From a virus, in IMG/VR virus record IMGVR_UViG_3300042261_001186, positions 32,001 through 96,000 of that record: a stretch of DNA of 64,000 bases; one strand, 5' to 3'. Position 1 is the stretch's first letter. Every line of letters starts with the position of its first letter. The notes beneath the pieces are model-generated. The model did not search any database. It saw only the letters and a program-made list of their open reading frames with translations, and was not told the origin of the DNA. Below are positions 2,664 to 59,348 of this stretch, in pieces. A program made the position numbers and the translations under genes.

Positions 2664-3009
2664 TATGATAACAAAATTTAATAAATATGAGAAAATATTT
2701 GAGAGTCTCCCAAGACAATCAACTGTCGATCAATTAAAAAGGATAAGACAAGAGATAAACAAATCTCAAAACATAAAAGTTGGTCCTGAAGAATCCACTA
2801 TGAGTGGTGATGTTGGTGACAGAGTAATAGATGATTTGGTTAAACATAAAGGTAAACAAGAAATGAATAATCTATTTTGGTGGGATAATCCATTAGATAG
2901 AAAAATTGATTCTTATGAGACTTTTGTGAAAGATGATTCAAGAACATCTCTTGGTTATACAACTAAAGGTGACCCAATTAAACATAGGGGAACTGATTAT
3001 AAAAATTAA
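2653..3009 (+). CDS. Hypothetical protein with capsid-targeting-like leader (probable start 2665)
   Basis: MITKFNKYEKIFE/S. Confidence 0.55.
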   Translation: MNFNMITKFNKYEKIFESLPRQSTVDQLKRIRQEINKSQNIKVGPEESTMSGDVGDRVIDDLVKHKGKQEMNNLFWWDNPLDRKIDSYETFVKDDSRTSLGYTTKGDPIKHRGTDYKN

Positions 3010-3019
3010 TTAATGAATT

Positions 3020-3394
3020 ATGAAAAATTTAAAAACTATGGATGAATTTATAAATGAAGGTTTTTCTAACATATTTGGAGGTAAGACCAATTATGATTTA
3101 CTAAAAATTATAAATGTTCAATTGGATGAAGTTGAAAAAAACGCTAAGTTAAATTTAACTATGTATAAAGAATTTGATATATTTAACAAATCTTTTCTTG
3201 CTGCAATAGATACAATAAACTCTTTTAATGTGAAACCTGATAATTCATATTATAAAGATGTTCATCAAGCAATAGATAAATTATATTCTTTAGTTCCATT
3301 CAAAGGAAGTAATCCTATGGCTTGGAAAAAAACAGTTGAAAAATTTAATAAAATGACATTAAAATATAATTCACATAAAAATTTAAGATGGTAA
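3020..3394 (+). CDS. Hypothetical protein with capsid-targeting-like leader
   Basis: MKNLKTMDEFINE/G. Confidence 0.55.
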   Translation: MKNLKTMDEFINEGFSNIFGGKTNYDLLKIINVQLDEVEKNAKLNLTMYKEFDIFNKSFLAAIDTINSFNVKPDNSYYKDVHQAIDKLYSLVPFKGSNPMAWKKTVEKFNKMTLKYNSHKNLRW

Positions 3395-4584
3395 TAAAAA
3401 AAAACATAAACAAAATGATAAAAAATTACAAAAACTTCATAGGTGAAAGTGTAGAAAATAAAGGAAAAGGTCCAGGTAATAATGATTTGTTTCCTTCAAC
3501 TCCTTTTAAACAAACTTTAAATCGTCCAAATCAAACAATGGATTTTTTAAGAGTTGGTAAACATATTTTAACTAGTAAAATAGATGGTTTCATTGATAGT
3601 GTTCAAAATGAAAACATTTTTATAACAGATAGACTTACTGGTGAAATAAAAAAATATACACTAAAGGAAGTTTTGAGAGAAATGACCAAAGCAAAACCAG
3701 TCGAAGGTAAAAATACACCAGTTGAAGGTTTTACTGGAACACCAAGATGGGCTCAAAAACCAACATTGGTAAAAGAAAAAATAGAGGCTGTCCATACCAT
3801 ATTGACTCCAGAAGATGAATTAGATGGTGAAATAAGTGAAGATGAAATGAATGAATATATAAATAAAGTTAATAAAAGAAATGATACAAGATTTAAATAT
3901 ACTGAAGAAGATGAGTTTGGAGAACATTCAGATGAAAATTTTGGTTTAAATACCCATCATGGAATGTACAGAAATGAAGACTACCCTCAATACACACCTA
4001 GTGTTGGAAATGATGATGATGAAGAATTATCTGGAGATACATACAATCCTGGTTTACTAAGTGATGCTGATGTCAATTCACCTATATATGATAAAGTTGA
4101 AATAGAAGAAAATGAAATAGATGAAAGATTTAGACCATCATCATTAGCTGATGATATGGCTTATAAAAGTGGTAAAGAAAAACTAAAAAAATTTGGAATA
4201 GATTTAGATGAAGAAGATGAAGGTGAAGAAGGTATAGATAATTTTATATTTGGAAAAAAACCTAAAAGAAATAGAGGCACAGAAGACAACCCTGAAGGTA
4301 ATACAAATCCTATAAGTGAAAGTTGGAACAAATACTGGGAAACCTTTGATCCATTAAGAGAAAGACTTGAAGAAGAAGATTATGAAGATGTTATGGATAT
4401 AAACCCTGATATATTTGAAGAAGAAAAAGAAGAAGAGGAATATGAAGAACCAGAAGGATCAGAAGACAATCCAATTCAAATGAGAAAAAGATTGAAAATA
4501 GAAGACTATTCTGAAGACAATCCAGAACCACAATATGGTGATGATAGGTTTGATCAATTTGGATTCAATGAAAATCAAGAATAA
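3388..4584 (+). CDS. Highly acidic putative internal head protein (probable start 3415)
   Basis: MIKNYKNFIGE/S leader; D/E-rich low-complexity C-terminal two thirds. Confidence 0.55.
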   Translation: MVIKKNINKMIKNYKNFIGESVENKGKGPGNNDLFPSTPFKQTLNRPNQTMDFLRVGKHILTSKIDGFIDSVQNENIFITDRLTGEIKKYTLKEVLREMTKAKPVEGKNTPVEGFTGTPRWAQKPTLVKEKIEAVHTILTPEDELDGEISEDEMNEYINKVNKRNDTRFKYTEEDEFGEHSDENFGLNTHHGMYRNEDYPQYTPSVGNDDDEELSGDTYNPGLLSDADVNSPIYDKVEIEENEIDERFRPSSLADDMAYKSGKEKLKKFGIDLDEEDEGEEGIDNFIFGKKPKRNRGTEDNPEGNTNPISESWNKYWETFDPLRERLEEEDYEDVMDINPDIFEEEKEEEEYEEPEGSEDNPIQMRKRLKIEDYSEDNPEPQYGDDRFDQFGFNENQE

Positions 4585-55797: not shown

Positions 55798-56094
55798 ATG
55801 TTCAAGAATATTTTAATAACTTTTTTAAAAGATAAGTACCCTAATTTTGATTTCATAATTTTCCCTTGGTCAAAGGATGATATGGATATCATAGAAAAAA
55901 AAGGACTTGGTAGAATGGATCCAAGGTACACAATTAATATGTATTTGGAGCATGCTAGTCAGGTTTATGCTCGTTCATCTAGAGAACAACAGACTGAAAT
56001 TTTGACACTGGCTGTGAATAGAGTGGATAAATTCATAAAAATGAAATGTAAAATAATTGAAGAATATAAAGATGAAAACATAGAATGGGTATAA
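55798..56094 (+). CDS. Hypothetical protein with DENIEWV tail
   Basis: ORF track. Confidence 0.6.
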   Translation: MFKNILITFLKDKYPNFDFIIFPWSKDDMDIIEKKGLGRMDPRYTINMYLEHASQVYARSSREQQTEILTLAVNRVDKFIKMKCKIIEEYKDENIEWV

Positions 56095-56141
56095 ATTATG
56101 TTTAAAGACGATGAATACAAGGATGAAAATATAGAATGGGT

Positions 56142-56447
56142 ATGAAAGAGGAATTCCTTAAAAAACTGAAAGAAAAATATGGGTTTGAAAAAATCTCACT
56201 TGATGGTAATGACTTAGTTATAAACAAGAACCCTAAAGCATTGAATGACATTAAAATATGGGTGGATTTGGATTTTGCTAAATATATGATGGAATTGACT
56301 GGTTCCAGCATGGAAATGGAAATAAAATGTCAAATGATACATGTTGATTGGGAACTCAAAAGGATGGATTATTTTTCAGAAAATCCTAAAAGTTGGTGGG
56401 TTGACAAAAAAGATATTTATGAAGATGAAAACATAGAATGGGTATGA
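56142..56447 (+). CDS. Hypothetical protein with DENIEWV tail
   Basis: ATGA overlap with the preceding mini-ORF; alternative start 56136. Confidence 0.6.
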   Translation: MKEEFLKKLKEKYGFEKISLDGNDLVINKNPKALNDIKIWVDLDFAKYMMELTGSSMEMEIKCQMIHVDWELKRMDYFSENPKSWWVDKKDIYEDENIEWV

Positions 56448-56548: not shown

Positions 56549-57364
56549 ATGGCAAAAAAGAGTGGAAAAGATTTCCAAAGAGAAGTCTTAAATGACCCTG
56601 AATGGGTAAAAGAACATGGTGATGTTGATAAATTTGAGGATATAGATTCGAAAGTTAATACCGAATATTCCTCTAAAAGAAAAGAAAAAACATCACTTAT
56701 AAACAAAAATAGATCTGGTAAATATCAATATGATTCTAGGTCAGCATTAAAAGGTGATACATTAATGTATAAAGGAAAAAAGAAAATAGTTTCTGAATAT
56801 AAAAATTATGATAGTGTAAGAAGCTTATTTAAACCACCTTCCATTTATGATATGAGTAAGTTTATGAAAACTAATGACTCAAACATTAGATATGCATCTG
56901 AACAAAAATTAGATTTTATATCTAATGATACTAAAAATTATTATGATAATTTTTTCAATCAAATCTTCAATGGTCCTAAAATTCACACATTAGAAACAAC
57001 TAATGAACCTATTCCAATTGGTTTTCTGGATTATGATTCTTTTTTAGAATTAATATGTTCTATTGAATTAGGGTTTGCATATAAAGAATTTGGTGTTGAA
57101 AAAATGAAAAATTTTGTTTGTTTGGACAATACAAATAAAAAATATATGAAAGATCTTGATTTAACAAAAGTCATAAACAAAGGTGATATAGTTAAATTAA
57201 GTATTTGGATTGATCCAACAACTAGATATTCTTACCTAATTTACACTTGTAATGATGAACCTATTTACATTCTTTCACAAAGAAAAAATGTTGCAAAAGC
57301 AAATTGTGCCTTTATTCCAAATTCTAAATTTGTAGTAAATGAAAAATCTAGAAAATCCATCTAA
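56549..57364 (+). CDS. Hypothetical protein, possible nuclease partner of the methyltransferase
   Basis: Convergent with the MTase; no motif firmly recognised. Confidence 0.45.
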   Translation: MAKKSGKDFQREVLNDPEWVKEHGDVDKFEDIDSKVNTEYSSKRKEKTSLINKNRSGKYQYDSRSALKGDTLMYKGKKKIVSEYKNYDSVRSLFKPPSIYDMSKFMKTNDSNIRYASEQKLDFISNDTKNYYDNFFNQIFNGPKIHTLETTNEPIPIGFLDYDSFLELICSIELGFAYKEFGVEKMKNFVCLDNTNKKYMKDLDLTKVINKGDIVKLSIWIDPTTRYSYLIYTCNDEPIYILSQRKNVAKANCAFIPNSKFVVNEKSRKSI

Positions 57365-57366
57365 AC

Positions 57367-57395
57367 AAAAAACCCCCTTAATTGGGGGTTTTTTT
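57367..57395. terminator. Bidirectional terminator
   Basis: AAAAAACCCCC-TTAATT-GGGGGTTTTTTT. Confidence 0.8.
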
Positions 57396-58494
57396 ATTTC
57401 ACCAAATTCTTGAATATCGCTTCTAAAACATTAACAACTATTGAATTTCCTGCCAATTTTATTAATGCACTATCACTCATAGTCCCTTCAACTTTATTAA
57501 AATCACTATCTGTGAACCCCATTAATTTCCAACATTCTCTTGGTATAAGTTGTCTTACTTCACCATTTTCATAAACCTTTATTCTAGATAATGCACCAGT
57601 TGCAGTTATAGTTGGAGATATACTATCAGTATGATAAACCTTATTTTCACTTGCAAAATTTGTATAACCAACTAAATCAAATCCTCTTATACCATTCTTA
57701 GTTTTTTTAGTTTCTATTACACTTGGATAATATTTCTTAAAATCAAAATAATATTTCTTATCAACATTTTTAGACATAATATCACCAATAGTTAAATTAG
57801 TTAATTCATTTTGTTCTGGAATAATATATTCTTGATCATCTATTATAGAAACCATATAAGCTCTTTCTCTATTCTGTGGTATATCAAAATAAGAAGCTTT
57901 CAATTTGAAATCATAATTCCTATATCCTAATTTTGTGAGATTCTCTTTCCAAGTTTCAAATCCTGTTTTGTGTTTATCACTCATTATTGATGCGACATTT
58001 TCCATTAATAAATATTTTGGTAATCTATTTTCAACTTTTAATTCATTAAGTAGTCTATCTACTTGCCACAATAAAGAACTTGATTTACCTTCAAATAAAC
58101 CTCTACCACTTCCTTGGTTACTTAAATCCTGACATGGAAATGAATATGTTAATAAATCATGGTCTGGCATATCAGTTGATTTGAAATCTAATATGGAACC
58201 AAGATTGTTTATGTTTTTATTAGAGACATAAAGTTTCTTTGCTTTTTCAAAATTCATTTTATCAGTATTTGTAGGTGTTTTAGTATCTAAAGAAAATGTA
58301 AATTTTTTAAGATAATCATATATTTCTTCTTTTGAATCTGTAGTTTCTTCATATGAATGATGGACAAGGTTATATGACATTATGGCATTGACATCCCATT
58401 CTGATACTGCAACTACTTCAAAGTCAGCTTTTATATTTTTAAGTGCTTTGTGTTGAGAACCAATACCAGCAAATAATTCAATTACTTTTATCAT
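57394..58494 (-). CDS. C5-cytosine DNA methyltransferase, M.SssI/M.MpeI-like (probable CpG specificity)
   Basis: FAGIG, DLLTYSFPCQDLS, LPKYLLMENV, QNRER, GNSI; target recognition region KKTK..GY..F.SE..VY..PTITATGA.SRIK. Confidence 0.9.
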   Translation of the reverse strand: MIKVIELFAGIGSQHKALKNIKADFEVVAVSEWDVNAIMSYNLVHHSYEETTDSKEEIYDYLKKFTFSLDTKTPTNTDKMNFEKAKKLYVSNKNINNLGSILDFKSTDMPDHDLLTYSFPCQDLSNQGSGRGLFEGKSSSLLWQVDRLLNELKVENRLPKYLLMENVASIMSDKHKTGFETWKENLTKLGYRNYDFKLKASYFDIPQNRERAYMVSIIDDQEYIIPEQNELTNLTIGDIMSKNVDKKYYFDFKKYYPSVIETKKTKNGIRGFDLVGYTNFASENKVYHTDSISPTITATGALSRIKVYENGEVRQLIPRECWKLMGFTDSDFNKVEGTMSDSALIKLAGNSIVVNVLEAIFKNLVK

Positions 58495-58551: not shown

Positions 58552-58818
58552 ATGATTAAACTATTTGAGGAATTTAATAAAAAGAAAGAAATAGACCCTT
58601 CAGATGCTTCTAAATGGAAAGTTGGAGATACAATTATTTGTACAAACAAAGGTAGAGGTAAAAGATTAGAAATAGGAAAAGAATATAAGATATTTGACAT
58701 AACTAAACCTTCTGGACAAGCAGTAATGATAAAAGGAGATTATACTTATTATAGTACAAAATATTTTATTAAGAAATTCAAAGATAAAATAAAAGAAGAA
58801 GACATAGAATGGTTCTAA
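58552..58818 (+). CDS. Leader + SH3-like domain + EEDIEWF tail
   Basis: MIKLFEEF; WKVGDTIIC; IKEEDIEWF*. Confidence 0.62.
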   Translation: MIKLFEEFNKKKEIDPSDASKWKVGDTIICTNKGRGKRLEIGKEYKIFDITKPSGQAVMIKGDYTYYSTKYFIKKFKDKIKEEDIEWF

Positions 58819-59348
58819 ATTATAAAAAATATAATGAATCTATTTACGAAGATTTTAAAATTGGTGATAGAGTCATCACGAAAGATTTATGGAAATTTAG
58901 TAATAAGTATGCAACTATTGTAAGGATAGATCATGGTGGTGATAAATATTGTATAGAATTTGATGAATTTATTGATGGACATAGTTGTTCAGGTAAGGGG
59001 AAAAAAGGACATTGTACTAATGCAAGTATTAAAAATTTAATTAAAATTGAAAAAGAAGAACCTATAAAAGAAGAAGATATAGAATGGTTTGAATCACTTA
59101 AACCAATGAATGAAAGTTTTGAGATAGGTGACATAGTGGTTTGCTTGGAGACAAAGAATGACAATAAAGGTAGGTTGAATTTCTTGGAAGGTAAAGAATA
59201 TCAATTGTTAAGGGGAATGGGAGACAAATATTTGTTTATTCAAGGGGAACAGAGAAACCTTGAATTATTTAGAAAAGATACTATACACAAATATTTTAAA
59301 AAAGTTGATATAAGTAATATAAAAGAAGAAGATATAGAATGGTTCTAA
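58809..59348 (+). CDS. Two-module protein, each module SH3-like and ending EEDIEWF
   Basis: YNE/S..FKIGD..EEDIEWFE/S..MNE/SFEIGD..EEDIEWF*. Confidence 0.65.
   Translation: MVLNYKKYNESIYEDFKIGDRVITKDLWKFSNKYATIVRIDHGGDKYCIEFDEFIDGHSCSGKGKKGHCTNASIKNLIKIEKEEPIKEEDIEWFESLKPMNESFEIGDIVVCLETKNDNKGRLNFLEGKEYQLLRGMGDKYLFIQGEQRNLELFRKDTIHKYFKKVDISNIKEEDIEWF

Follow-up and report, generated by a model that had tools for sequence, protein, structure and literature searches.

We describe a gene for a C5 cytosine DNA methyltransferase in a CpG-poor tailed phage from fresh water, together with the neighboring gene that may complete a restriction-modification pair. The stretch that was analyzed, hereafter the window, comprises 64,000 nucleotides and corresponds to bases 32001-96000 of IMG/VR virus record IMGVR_UViG_3300042261_001186 (G000), a genome of 130,397 bp that CheckV rates 100% complete and that has a GC content of 28.6%. 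The methylase gene, at window positions 57394-58494 on the minus strand, almost certainly encodes a member of the family of M.MpeI and M.SssI, and its product very probably recognizes CG. CpG is depleted across the whole phage genome, the depletion is specific to this phage lineage, and the gene that converges on the methylase gene encodes a conserved protein with a predicted nuclease fold. On balance, we favor an account in which an active CpG methylase and a nuclease partner entered the phage, deamination of 5-methylcytosine (5mC) eroded CpG, and a very-short-patch T:G mismatch endonuclease (Vsr) arrived later.

The initial annotation of this DNA had called the open reading frame (ORF) an SssI-like methyltransferase and had compared its variable region with the target recognition region of M.SssI. 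The stretches that it quoted, KKTKNGIRGFDLVGYTNFASENKVY and PTITATGALSRIK, are present in the translation of an intact frame of 366 amino acids, and the likeness to M.SssI and M.MpeI extends down to the recognition loops, with M.MpeI the best match by both sequence and fold. The protein matches PF00145 with an E value of 1.2e-60 (206 bits; cut-off 22). Among 22 solved relatives, M.MpeI (4dkj, 8c56) ranks first, with an E value of 7e-63 and 216 bits over residues 2-364, and the next, M.HhaI, scores 102 bits. An AlphaFold model of the methylase, with a predicted local distance difference test (pLDDT) score of 90.7, superposes in Foldseek on 4dkj_A at 39% identity, with template modeling (TM) scores of 0.87/0.82; for HhaI, the TM score is ~0.71. 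Moreover, the catalytic motifs occupy invariant columns of the alignments (A1/A2), namely F8, G10, and G12 of motif I (FxGxG), P120-C121 of motif IV (PCQ), E165-N166-V167 of motif VI (ENV), Q207, R209, and R211 of motif VIII (QxRxR), and G349-N350-S351 of motif X (GNS).

Overall identity is an insufficient guide to specificity here, because an alignment of 30 homologues divides proteins that are equally ~40% identical into a class with MpeI-type loops and a class with a different recognition domain (class B). The phage methylase falls in the former. According to PMC10899764, M.MpeI reads its target through Q141, which occupies the gap of the flipped cytosine; F302, which intercalates; E305, which bonds the partner-strand cytosine; the main chain of A323, which bonds the guanine; S325 and a loop-1 pocket, which fix A323; and R326, which influences specificity. 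The CG-contact residues Q141, F302, E305, G322, A323, S325, and R326 are all identical in the phage protein, and two positions differ, with N in place of T301 and L in place of N324, the latter in a column that holds Q, L, or N among homologues. Nine of 18 positions of loop 1 and 10 of 15 of loop 2 match M.MpeI. Also, bisulfite sequencing showed CG methylation by a Mycoplasma agalactiae enzyme with only 40% identity to M.SssI and M.MpeI (PMC9465063), so specificity is kept at such a distance within the family. We consider CG specificity of the phage enzyme highly probable.

Over the whole of G000, the strand-symmetrised ratio of observed to expected CpG (o/e) is 0.226 (600 CG), with TpG/CpA at 1.22 and GpC at 0.68; the genome is indeed CpG-depleted, as had been proposed. 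The window itself has a CpG o/e of 0.227 (283 CG), with GpC at 0.72, CpA at 1.21, and TpG at 1.23; its first 1,260 bases, in which a single CG had been counted by eye amid frequent GC, contain exactly 1 CG and 28 GC. The methylase gene has 2 CG (CpG o/e 0.10). In coding sequence, CpG falls 108 times at codon positions 1-2, 120 times at positions 2-3, and 273 times across the codon boundary (3-1). When synonymous codons were shuffled with protein sequences and codon usage held constant, 831-836 (about 835) boundary CpG were expected, which gives a ratio of 0.33 and a z of -25; the corresponding ratios for CpA and TpG are 1.52 and 1.11. AT-rich codon bias, which the initial annotation had offered as a caveat, is therefore not the explanation, and the codon-corrected deficit with a TpG/CpA excess that it suggested looking for is present. 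A longer target site was sought as well, with the transfer-messenger RNA (tmRNA) gene and a foreign island masked. All 16 NCGN contexts are depleted in G000 (o/e 0.12-0.29, against 0.52-2.62 in its sister genome G004), and nothing points to a longer site. Given the CG deficit, the palindromic 4-mers ACGT, CCGG, TCGA, and GCGC stand at 0.83, 0.88, 0.99, and 0.75. Uniform depletion without extra loss of any 4-mer argues against both a longer methylation site and the avoidance of a few restriction sites.

The depletion is lineage-specific. A search with the portal protein retrieved 80 related viral loci, and in a tree built from the joined sequences of seven core proteins, G000 is sister to G004 with support of 1.0, followed by a clade of L008, L010, L012, and L017, with L033 outside. 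G004 (also the L009 record; 243,112 bp, CheckV 100%) has no PF00145 match, a GC content of 26.1%, a CpG o/e of 0.97, and a codon-boundary ratio of 1.44. It shares 66 of the 168 G000 ORFs by tblastn, in synteny, and its core proteins are ~80% identical. G005 (114,058 bp, GC 29.9%) likewise has no C5 methylase, and its CpG o/e is 0.66 with a codon-boundary ratio of 1.18. The clade next to G000 and G004 lies at 0.66-0.88, and 19 loci whose portal is 80-93% identical lie at 0.59-1.01 with similar GC. PF00145 was found in none of the 50 portal-relative records searched, most of which are small fragments. Genome size also varies widely in this family, with 130 kb in G000 and 243 kb in its sister, as does CpG o/e, from 0.23 to 1.01; the CheckV completeness of relatives of 110-160 kb is only 15-30%.

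Reconstruction of ancestral sites reveals the same contrast between the sisters. With G005 as outgroup and 18 gene triplets, 18 of 75 ancestral CG were kept in G000 versus 18 of 30 in G004 (Fisher p 0.0012), and retention in G000 was the lowest among the 16 dinucleotides. The 57 losses in G000 include 33 changes to TG and 12 to AG, half of the latter (6/12) being conversions of CGN to AGR arginine codons. When seven core genes were polarized against four outgroups instead, G000 kept 14 of 40 and G004 14 of 18 (p 0.004).

A degenerate DNA pattern of recognition loop 2 retrieved two further viral records and four metagenome contigs. The two viruses, G054 with 84 kb and G055 with 113 kb, encode a methylase 70% identical to that of G000, with the same loops, and have few other proteins in common with G000; each has a CpG o/e of 0.18, with codon-boundary ratios of 0.10 and 0.11. 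Contigs L192, L193, and L195 carry methylases that are 83%, 71%, and 71% identical, at CpG o/e of 0.0, 0.04, and 0.29. Every record in this set with a methylase at least 70% identical is extremely depleted (0.0-0.29). In bacteria, MpeI-type loops occur in 10 of 80 genome loci, all of them Mollicutes, with CpG o/e of 0.24-0.59. GenBank phages include 663 records with a C5 methylase match, all below 60% identity. Three of the four that were examined have other recognition domains; the fourth, a Mycoplasma prophage, combines an MpeI-like loop 1 with a shortened loop 2, at a CpG o/e of 0.59. Two IMG/VR viral contigs, L082 and L083, encode a 47%-identical methylase in which W and D replace F and E in loop 1 and loop 2 is without GA-x-SR, yet their CpG o/e is 0.12-0.15. 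On L195 (6311-9576) and L193, the methylase is accompanied by a 301-amino-acid GIY-YIG protein, a DEAD/ResIII helicase, and an Eco57I-like N6 methylase, with a CoaE gene adjoining; this neighborhood looks like a cellular defense island in a very CpG-poor organism.

The gene convergent to the methylase gene in G000 lies tail to tail with it at a distance of 29 bp, and we regard its product as probably a restriction endonuclease, judging from gene linkage and a predicted fold. The protein had no match in Pfam, PHROGs, NCBIfam, or PADLOC, and a profile search of the PDB returned nothing. HMMER, run in full over 1.84 billion representatives, yielded a family of just 25 relatives; a single-protein search yielded no viral ones. 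Homologues of the partner converge on the methylase gene in G054 and L192, as in G000. For four of the 10 closest partner relatives, the longest contig equals that of a methylase homologue (58259, 2151, 7819, and 4414), which points indirectly to co-residence; among the next 10, more distant relatives, there were no such matches (0/10) with the listed methylase homologues. Residues D70, K85, Y87, K107, D110, E173, and R245, among others, are invariant in the family, and position 83 is D or E. In the partner model (pLDDT 90.8), D70 sits at the start of one strand and E83-x-K85 at the end of the next, which is the usual layout of PD-(D/E)xK nucleases. An exhaustive structural search with this model placed R.MspI first (Z 5.8, 184 residues aligned), along with R.HinP1I (Z 5.1, 192 residues). 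Lower matches include Holliday-junction resolvases, EcoRV, DpnI, SwaI, SfiI, BcnI, HincII, and PvuII, and the list is dominated by PD-(D/E)xK nucleases. To coexist with the methylase, the partner should have a cleavage site that contains CG. The hairpin between the two genes is likely a bidirectional intrinsic terminator; the terminator scan found 1 versus 0.4 expected in shuffles. The features of this region, together with the tmRNA gene and the Vsr gene discussed below, are listed in the table.

Table. Features of the phage genome discussed in the text (window positions unless marked otherwise)
Feature	Position	Strand	Basis or detail
Candidate restriction endonuclease partner, 271 amino acids, unannotated family, PD-(D/E)xK-like core D70...E83-x-K85	56549..57364	+	Gene linkage, fold
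G+C-rich hairpin with A-run and T-run flanks, between convergent genes	57365..57398	.	Terminator scan: stem 57374-57388, then T-run
C5 cytosine DNA methyltransferase, M.SssI/M.MpeI family, probably CpG-specific	57394..58494	-	366 amino acids, ATG start, PF00145
tmRNA, sole RNA gene in window and genome	55133-55532	+	ARAGORN, Rfam RF00023, 69.9 bits
Vsr very-short-patch T:G mismatch endonuclease, 155 amino acids, outside window	genome 110367-110834 (L111 4367-4834)	+	PF03852, TIGR00632

About 20 kb from the pair, G000 carries a vsr gene. Its product exceeds the cut-offs of PF03852 (E 1.8e-24, 85.8 bits against 27) and TIGR00632 (129.8 bits against 97.85), aligns to E. coli Vsr (1cw0) with an E value of 1.3e-9, and has the blocks DGEFWHG and KIERN, which are invariant (alignment A3). 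The gene belongs to a protein-coding island of 1.7 kb (genome 109.2-110.85 kb) with 40-48% GC and a CpG o/e of 0.9-1.4; bases 109001-111000 of the genome hold 97 of the 600 CpG of G000. The island is not an assembly chimera, since neighboring island ORFs end in the DPxGEExWE tag of the phage family. No Vsr scored above cut-off in the 50 records searched, and tblastn found none in G004, G005, G054, G055, L082, L083, L090, L193, or L195; the best relatives are bacterial Vsr proteins, 50-60% identical. The island reads as a recent capture whose CpG is still uneroded, which fits phage DNA undergoing 5mC deamination. In L199, an IMG/VR provirus, the genes for a Vsr homologue of 43% identity and for an unrelated C5 methylase stand back to back (2987-4416); such linkage is the classical arrangement and is missing in G000. 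The initial annotation had described CG-rich "structured RNA islands." This holds for the tmRNA gene, which has 14 CG in 400 nucleotides (CpG o/e 1.22); the plural does not, because that is the only RNA gene and the other CG-rich island is this protein-coding one outside the window.

In the account that we favor, a freshwater tailed phage would have acquired the methylase gene and its convergent partner together by horizontal transfer. In the infected cell, the methylase would turn every CpG in replicating phage DNA into 5mCpG and so guard that DNA against the phage's own nuclease and against host enzymes with CG in their site. The partner, most likely a PD-(D/E)xK nuclease, would then be free to cut unmethylated DNA of the host or of competitors. 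Over time, 5mC-to-T deamination may have worn CpG down to TpG/CpA across the genome until approximately one fifth of the expectation was left, and the Vsr gene, in its foreign CpG-rich island, would be a later acquisition that counters this self-inflicted mutagenesis. A more elaborate form of this account is less likely than not: a complete CpG-directed weapon that consists of the methylase, a new MspI/HinP1I-like nuclease family that destroys unmethylated DNA of host and competitors at sites with CG, a CpG-purged genome, and a recently captured Vsr that slows the erosion.

Several observations weigh against the favored account, and those that concern the cause of the deficit are compatible with a different explanation, in which the deficit is a signature of the host, or of an unrelated mutation or selection pressure across the lineage, and the methylase is a passenger from the same host pool as those of G054 and G055. 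PMC11282364 indicates that phage CpG content tends to track that of the host. Low-GC Clostridia and Bacilli whose methylases have other, non-MpeI-type recognition domains have CpG o/e of 0.3-0.57; hence, a low CpG content does not by itself reveal CpG methylation, and the association in bacteria is confounded. G054 and G055 count as one replicate because they are close kin (94% identity in one protein), and their own kin, three fragments only, have CpG o/e of 0.33-0.50 with no methylase seen. Four of the 80 portal loci (L031, L034, L037, and L052) lie at 0.23-0.34 with no methylase visible in records of 5.6-31 kb, and many loci of a clade with ~62% portal identity lie at 0.4-0.6. The question raised by the initial annotation, whether relatives that lack the gene are equally CpG-poor, is answered in favor of its reading by the nearest complete one, G004, which is not; some distant relatives, represented by fragments with no methylase seen, are CpG-poor at 0.23-0.50. 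In view of those fragments, the causal link is likely, not proven. The mutational evidence has limits of its own, as synonymous sites are near saturation and single-outgroup parsimony is crude. Third-position C changed to T in G000 at 33 of 53 sites before G versus 29 of 63 before other bases, which is not a significant difference (Fisher p 0.09). Such change at the third codon position is common in all contexts of these AT-rich phages. Third-position C before G is preferentially kept in G004, with 4 of 22 changed to T, and the clear third-position signal is this contrast with G004, not G000 alone. Nevertheless, we consider a host signature or lineage-wide regime unlikely, and the passenger role that goes with it equally so. 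G004 retains its CpG despite a lower GC and closely related core proteins, the next clade stands at 0.66-0.88, and the deficit of G000 is deeper than that of nearly all bacterial loci sampled. Furthermore, the depletion of all records with similar methylases and the uniform NCGN loss with TpG/CpA excess argue against that explanation; methylation is the likely cause of the deficit.

Other observations bear on what the two proteins do. One alternative, in line with the broad protection against restriction that the initial annotation had envisaged, is a solitary methylase, in which case the neighboring gene would be unrelated or not a nuclease. M.SssI and M.MpeI count as orphan enzymes, and the best PADLOC profile for the phage methylase is "orphan methyltransferase" (E 1.6e-66). 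The partner is missing beside the 70-71%-identical methylase genes of G055 and L193/L195. Its structural matches are moderate, with both Z scores under the tool's caution line of 8, and Foldseek returned nothing for it at E <= 0.001, the best match being R.HhaI (E 0.006, TM 0.21). A solitary role is, however, rather improbable in the face of the convergent pair in G000, G054, and L192, the four further apparent co-residences, the invariant D...[DE]xK on adjacent predicted strands, and the two small restriction enzymes at the top of the fold search; the conserved tail-to-tail nuclease-fold partner suggests that the methylase is probably half of a phage-borne restriction-modification pair. Interference with host epigenetics, also proposed initially, is not supported. 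It is more doubtful still that the methylase reads a longer site containing CG, for example a 4-bp palindrome that suits an MspI/HinP1I-like partner, with the CpG deficit caused otherwise. MspI and HinP1I, the nearest folds, cut 4-bp sites that have CG in the middle; the PADLOC profile "Type II methyltransferase" fits nearly as well (E 7.4e-62); and the residues at the T301 and N324 positions differ from those of M.MpeI. Against such a site stand the MpeI type of both loops, the identity of the base-contacting residues, the equal depletion in the NCGN contexts, and the fact that no CG 4-mer is specially avoided. A further point against the favored account is that the phage Vsr differs from the rest of its family at two almost invariant positions.

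Comparison with known systems places the phage methylase in the same family as M.MpeI of Mycoplasma penetrans and M.SssI of Spiroplasma sp. MQ1, with the same fold and two recognition loops. The M. penetrans genome is reported to be CpG-poor (PMC11282364), and G000 is CpG-poor too. Unlike those enzymes of Mollicutes, the phage enzyme resides in a 130-kb tailed freshwater phage in which TGA is a stop codon, and unlike those stand-alone proteins, it is linked to a nuclease-fold partner and differs at the positions of T301 and N324. Prokaryotic CpG methyltransferases have been described only in Mollicutes, according to PMC9465063. What is new in G000 is a 2-bp CG target, probable from the loops, in a phage outside Mollicutes; a linked, unannotated family of candidate nucleases; genome-wide erosion; and a sister genome that has neither the gene nor the erosion. 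A limited search of the open-access literature did not turn up a phage that combines a CpG methylase with CpG erosion, which does not prove that none has been reported.

Virus-borne methylases have precedents among chloroviruses and Bacillus phages. A parallel in gene content is a predicted three-gene module of Burkholderia phage KL3, which PMC3091744 describes as an EcoRII-C endonuclease, a Vsr protein, and an EcoRII (CCWGG) methylase. KL3 and G000 both carry a C5 methylase, a Vsr protein, and a restriction enzyme, a candidate one in G000. The KL3 target has 5 bp, whereas the probable 2-bp CG target in G000 would impose a mutational load genome-wide, visible as CpG erosion; also unlike KL3, the nuclease family of G000 is unannotated, and its Vsr gene lies apart from the pair in a foreign-looking island. 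E. coli Dcm-Vsr follows the same logic as G000, a 5mC methylase with a T:G endonuclease, although the Vsr gene of G000 is away from the methylase gene and its product deviates at the two positions noted above. R.MspI and R.HinP1I resemble the partner in protein size as well as in overall fold, but the match is moderate by Z score and is not accompanied by any detectable similarity in sequence.

CpG-specific prokaryotic methyltransferases such as M.SssI and M.MpeI are research tools, and the present observations extend the range of their family to large freshwater phages and to uncultured, extremely CpG-poor contigs. The partner family could provide a new restriction specificity that is blocked by CpG methylation. 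If the more elaborate form of the favored account is true, G000 would have the first CpG restriction-modification system and the first CpG methylome outside Mollicutes, and it would offer a natural experiment, with dates, on how 5mC erodes the genome of a bacterial virus. Also, the contrast within the sister pair, with CpG o/e of 0.23 versus 0.97, bears on the long-argued question of an effect of cytosine methylation on the CpG content of prokaryotic-type genomes.

PHROG profiles identify G000 as a tailed phage with a major head protein, a prohead protease, a portal, a DNA polymerase, a helicase, an RtcB ligase, and a Clp/Lon-type protease. The standard bacterial code gives 168 simple ORF calls, which together span 91% of the genome; TGA terminates 33 of them, so the phage does not use the Mycoplasma/Spiroplasma code. 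Two studies of fresh water and lake water yielded metagenomes that contain nearly identical DNA, and one of these studies is possibly the source of the record itself. Bacteroidota are among the taxa named for the Vsr relatives, a hint that we rejected as host evidence. No N6/N4 methylase or D12-class methylase was found in the G000 genome. A TET/JBP dioxygenase of the 5-hydroxymethylcytosine pathway was not found in G000 either, a result that is uninformative because the control was also without a match.

The methylase pair sits among small genes with an EDIEW[FV] tail (window 55798-56447 and 58552-59348), and the block around it is a variable region, as evidenced by the lack of a tblastn counterpart in G004. 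The tag that ARAGORN predicts for the tmRNA is unusual and short (GKNQIL). Finally, CATG is scarce in G000, with 212 observed versus 501 expected from trinucleotides (0.42), GATC stands at 0.64, and GTAC is enriched at 1.40; the scarcity of CATG and GATC may mean that the phage avoids restriction sites of its host that have nothing to do with CG.

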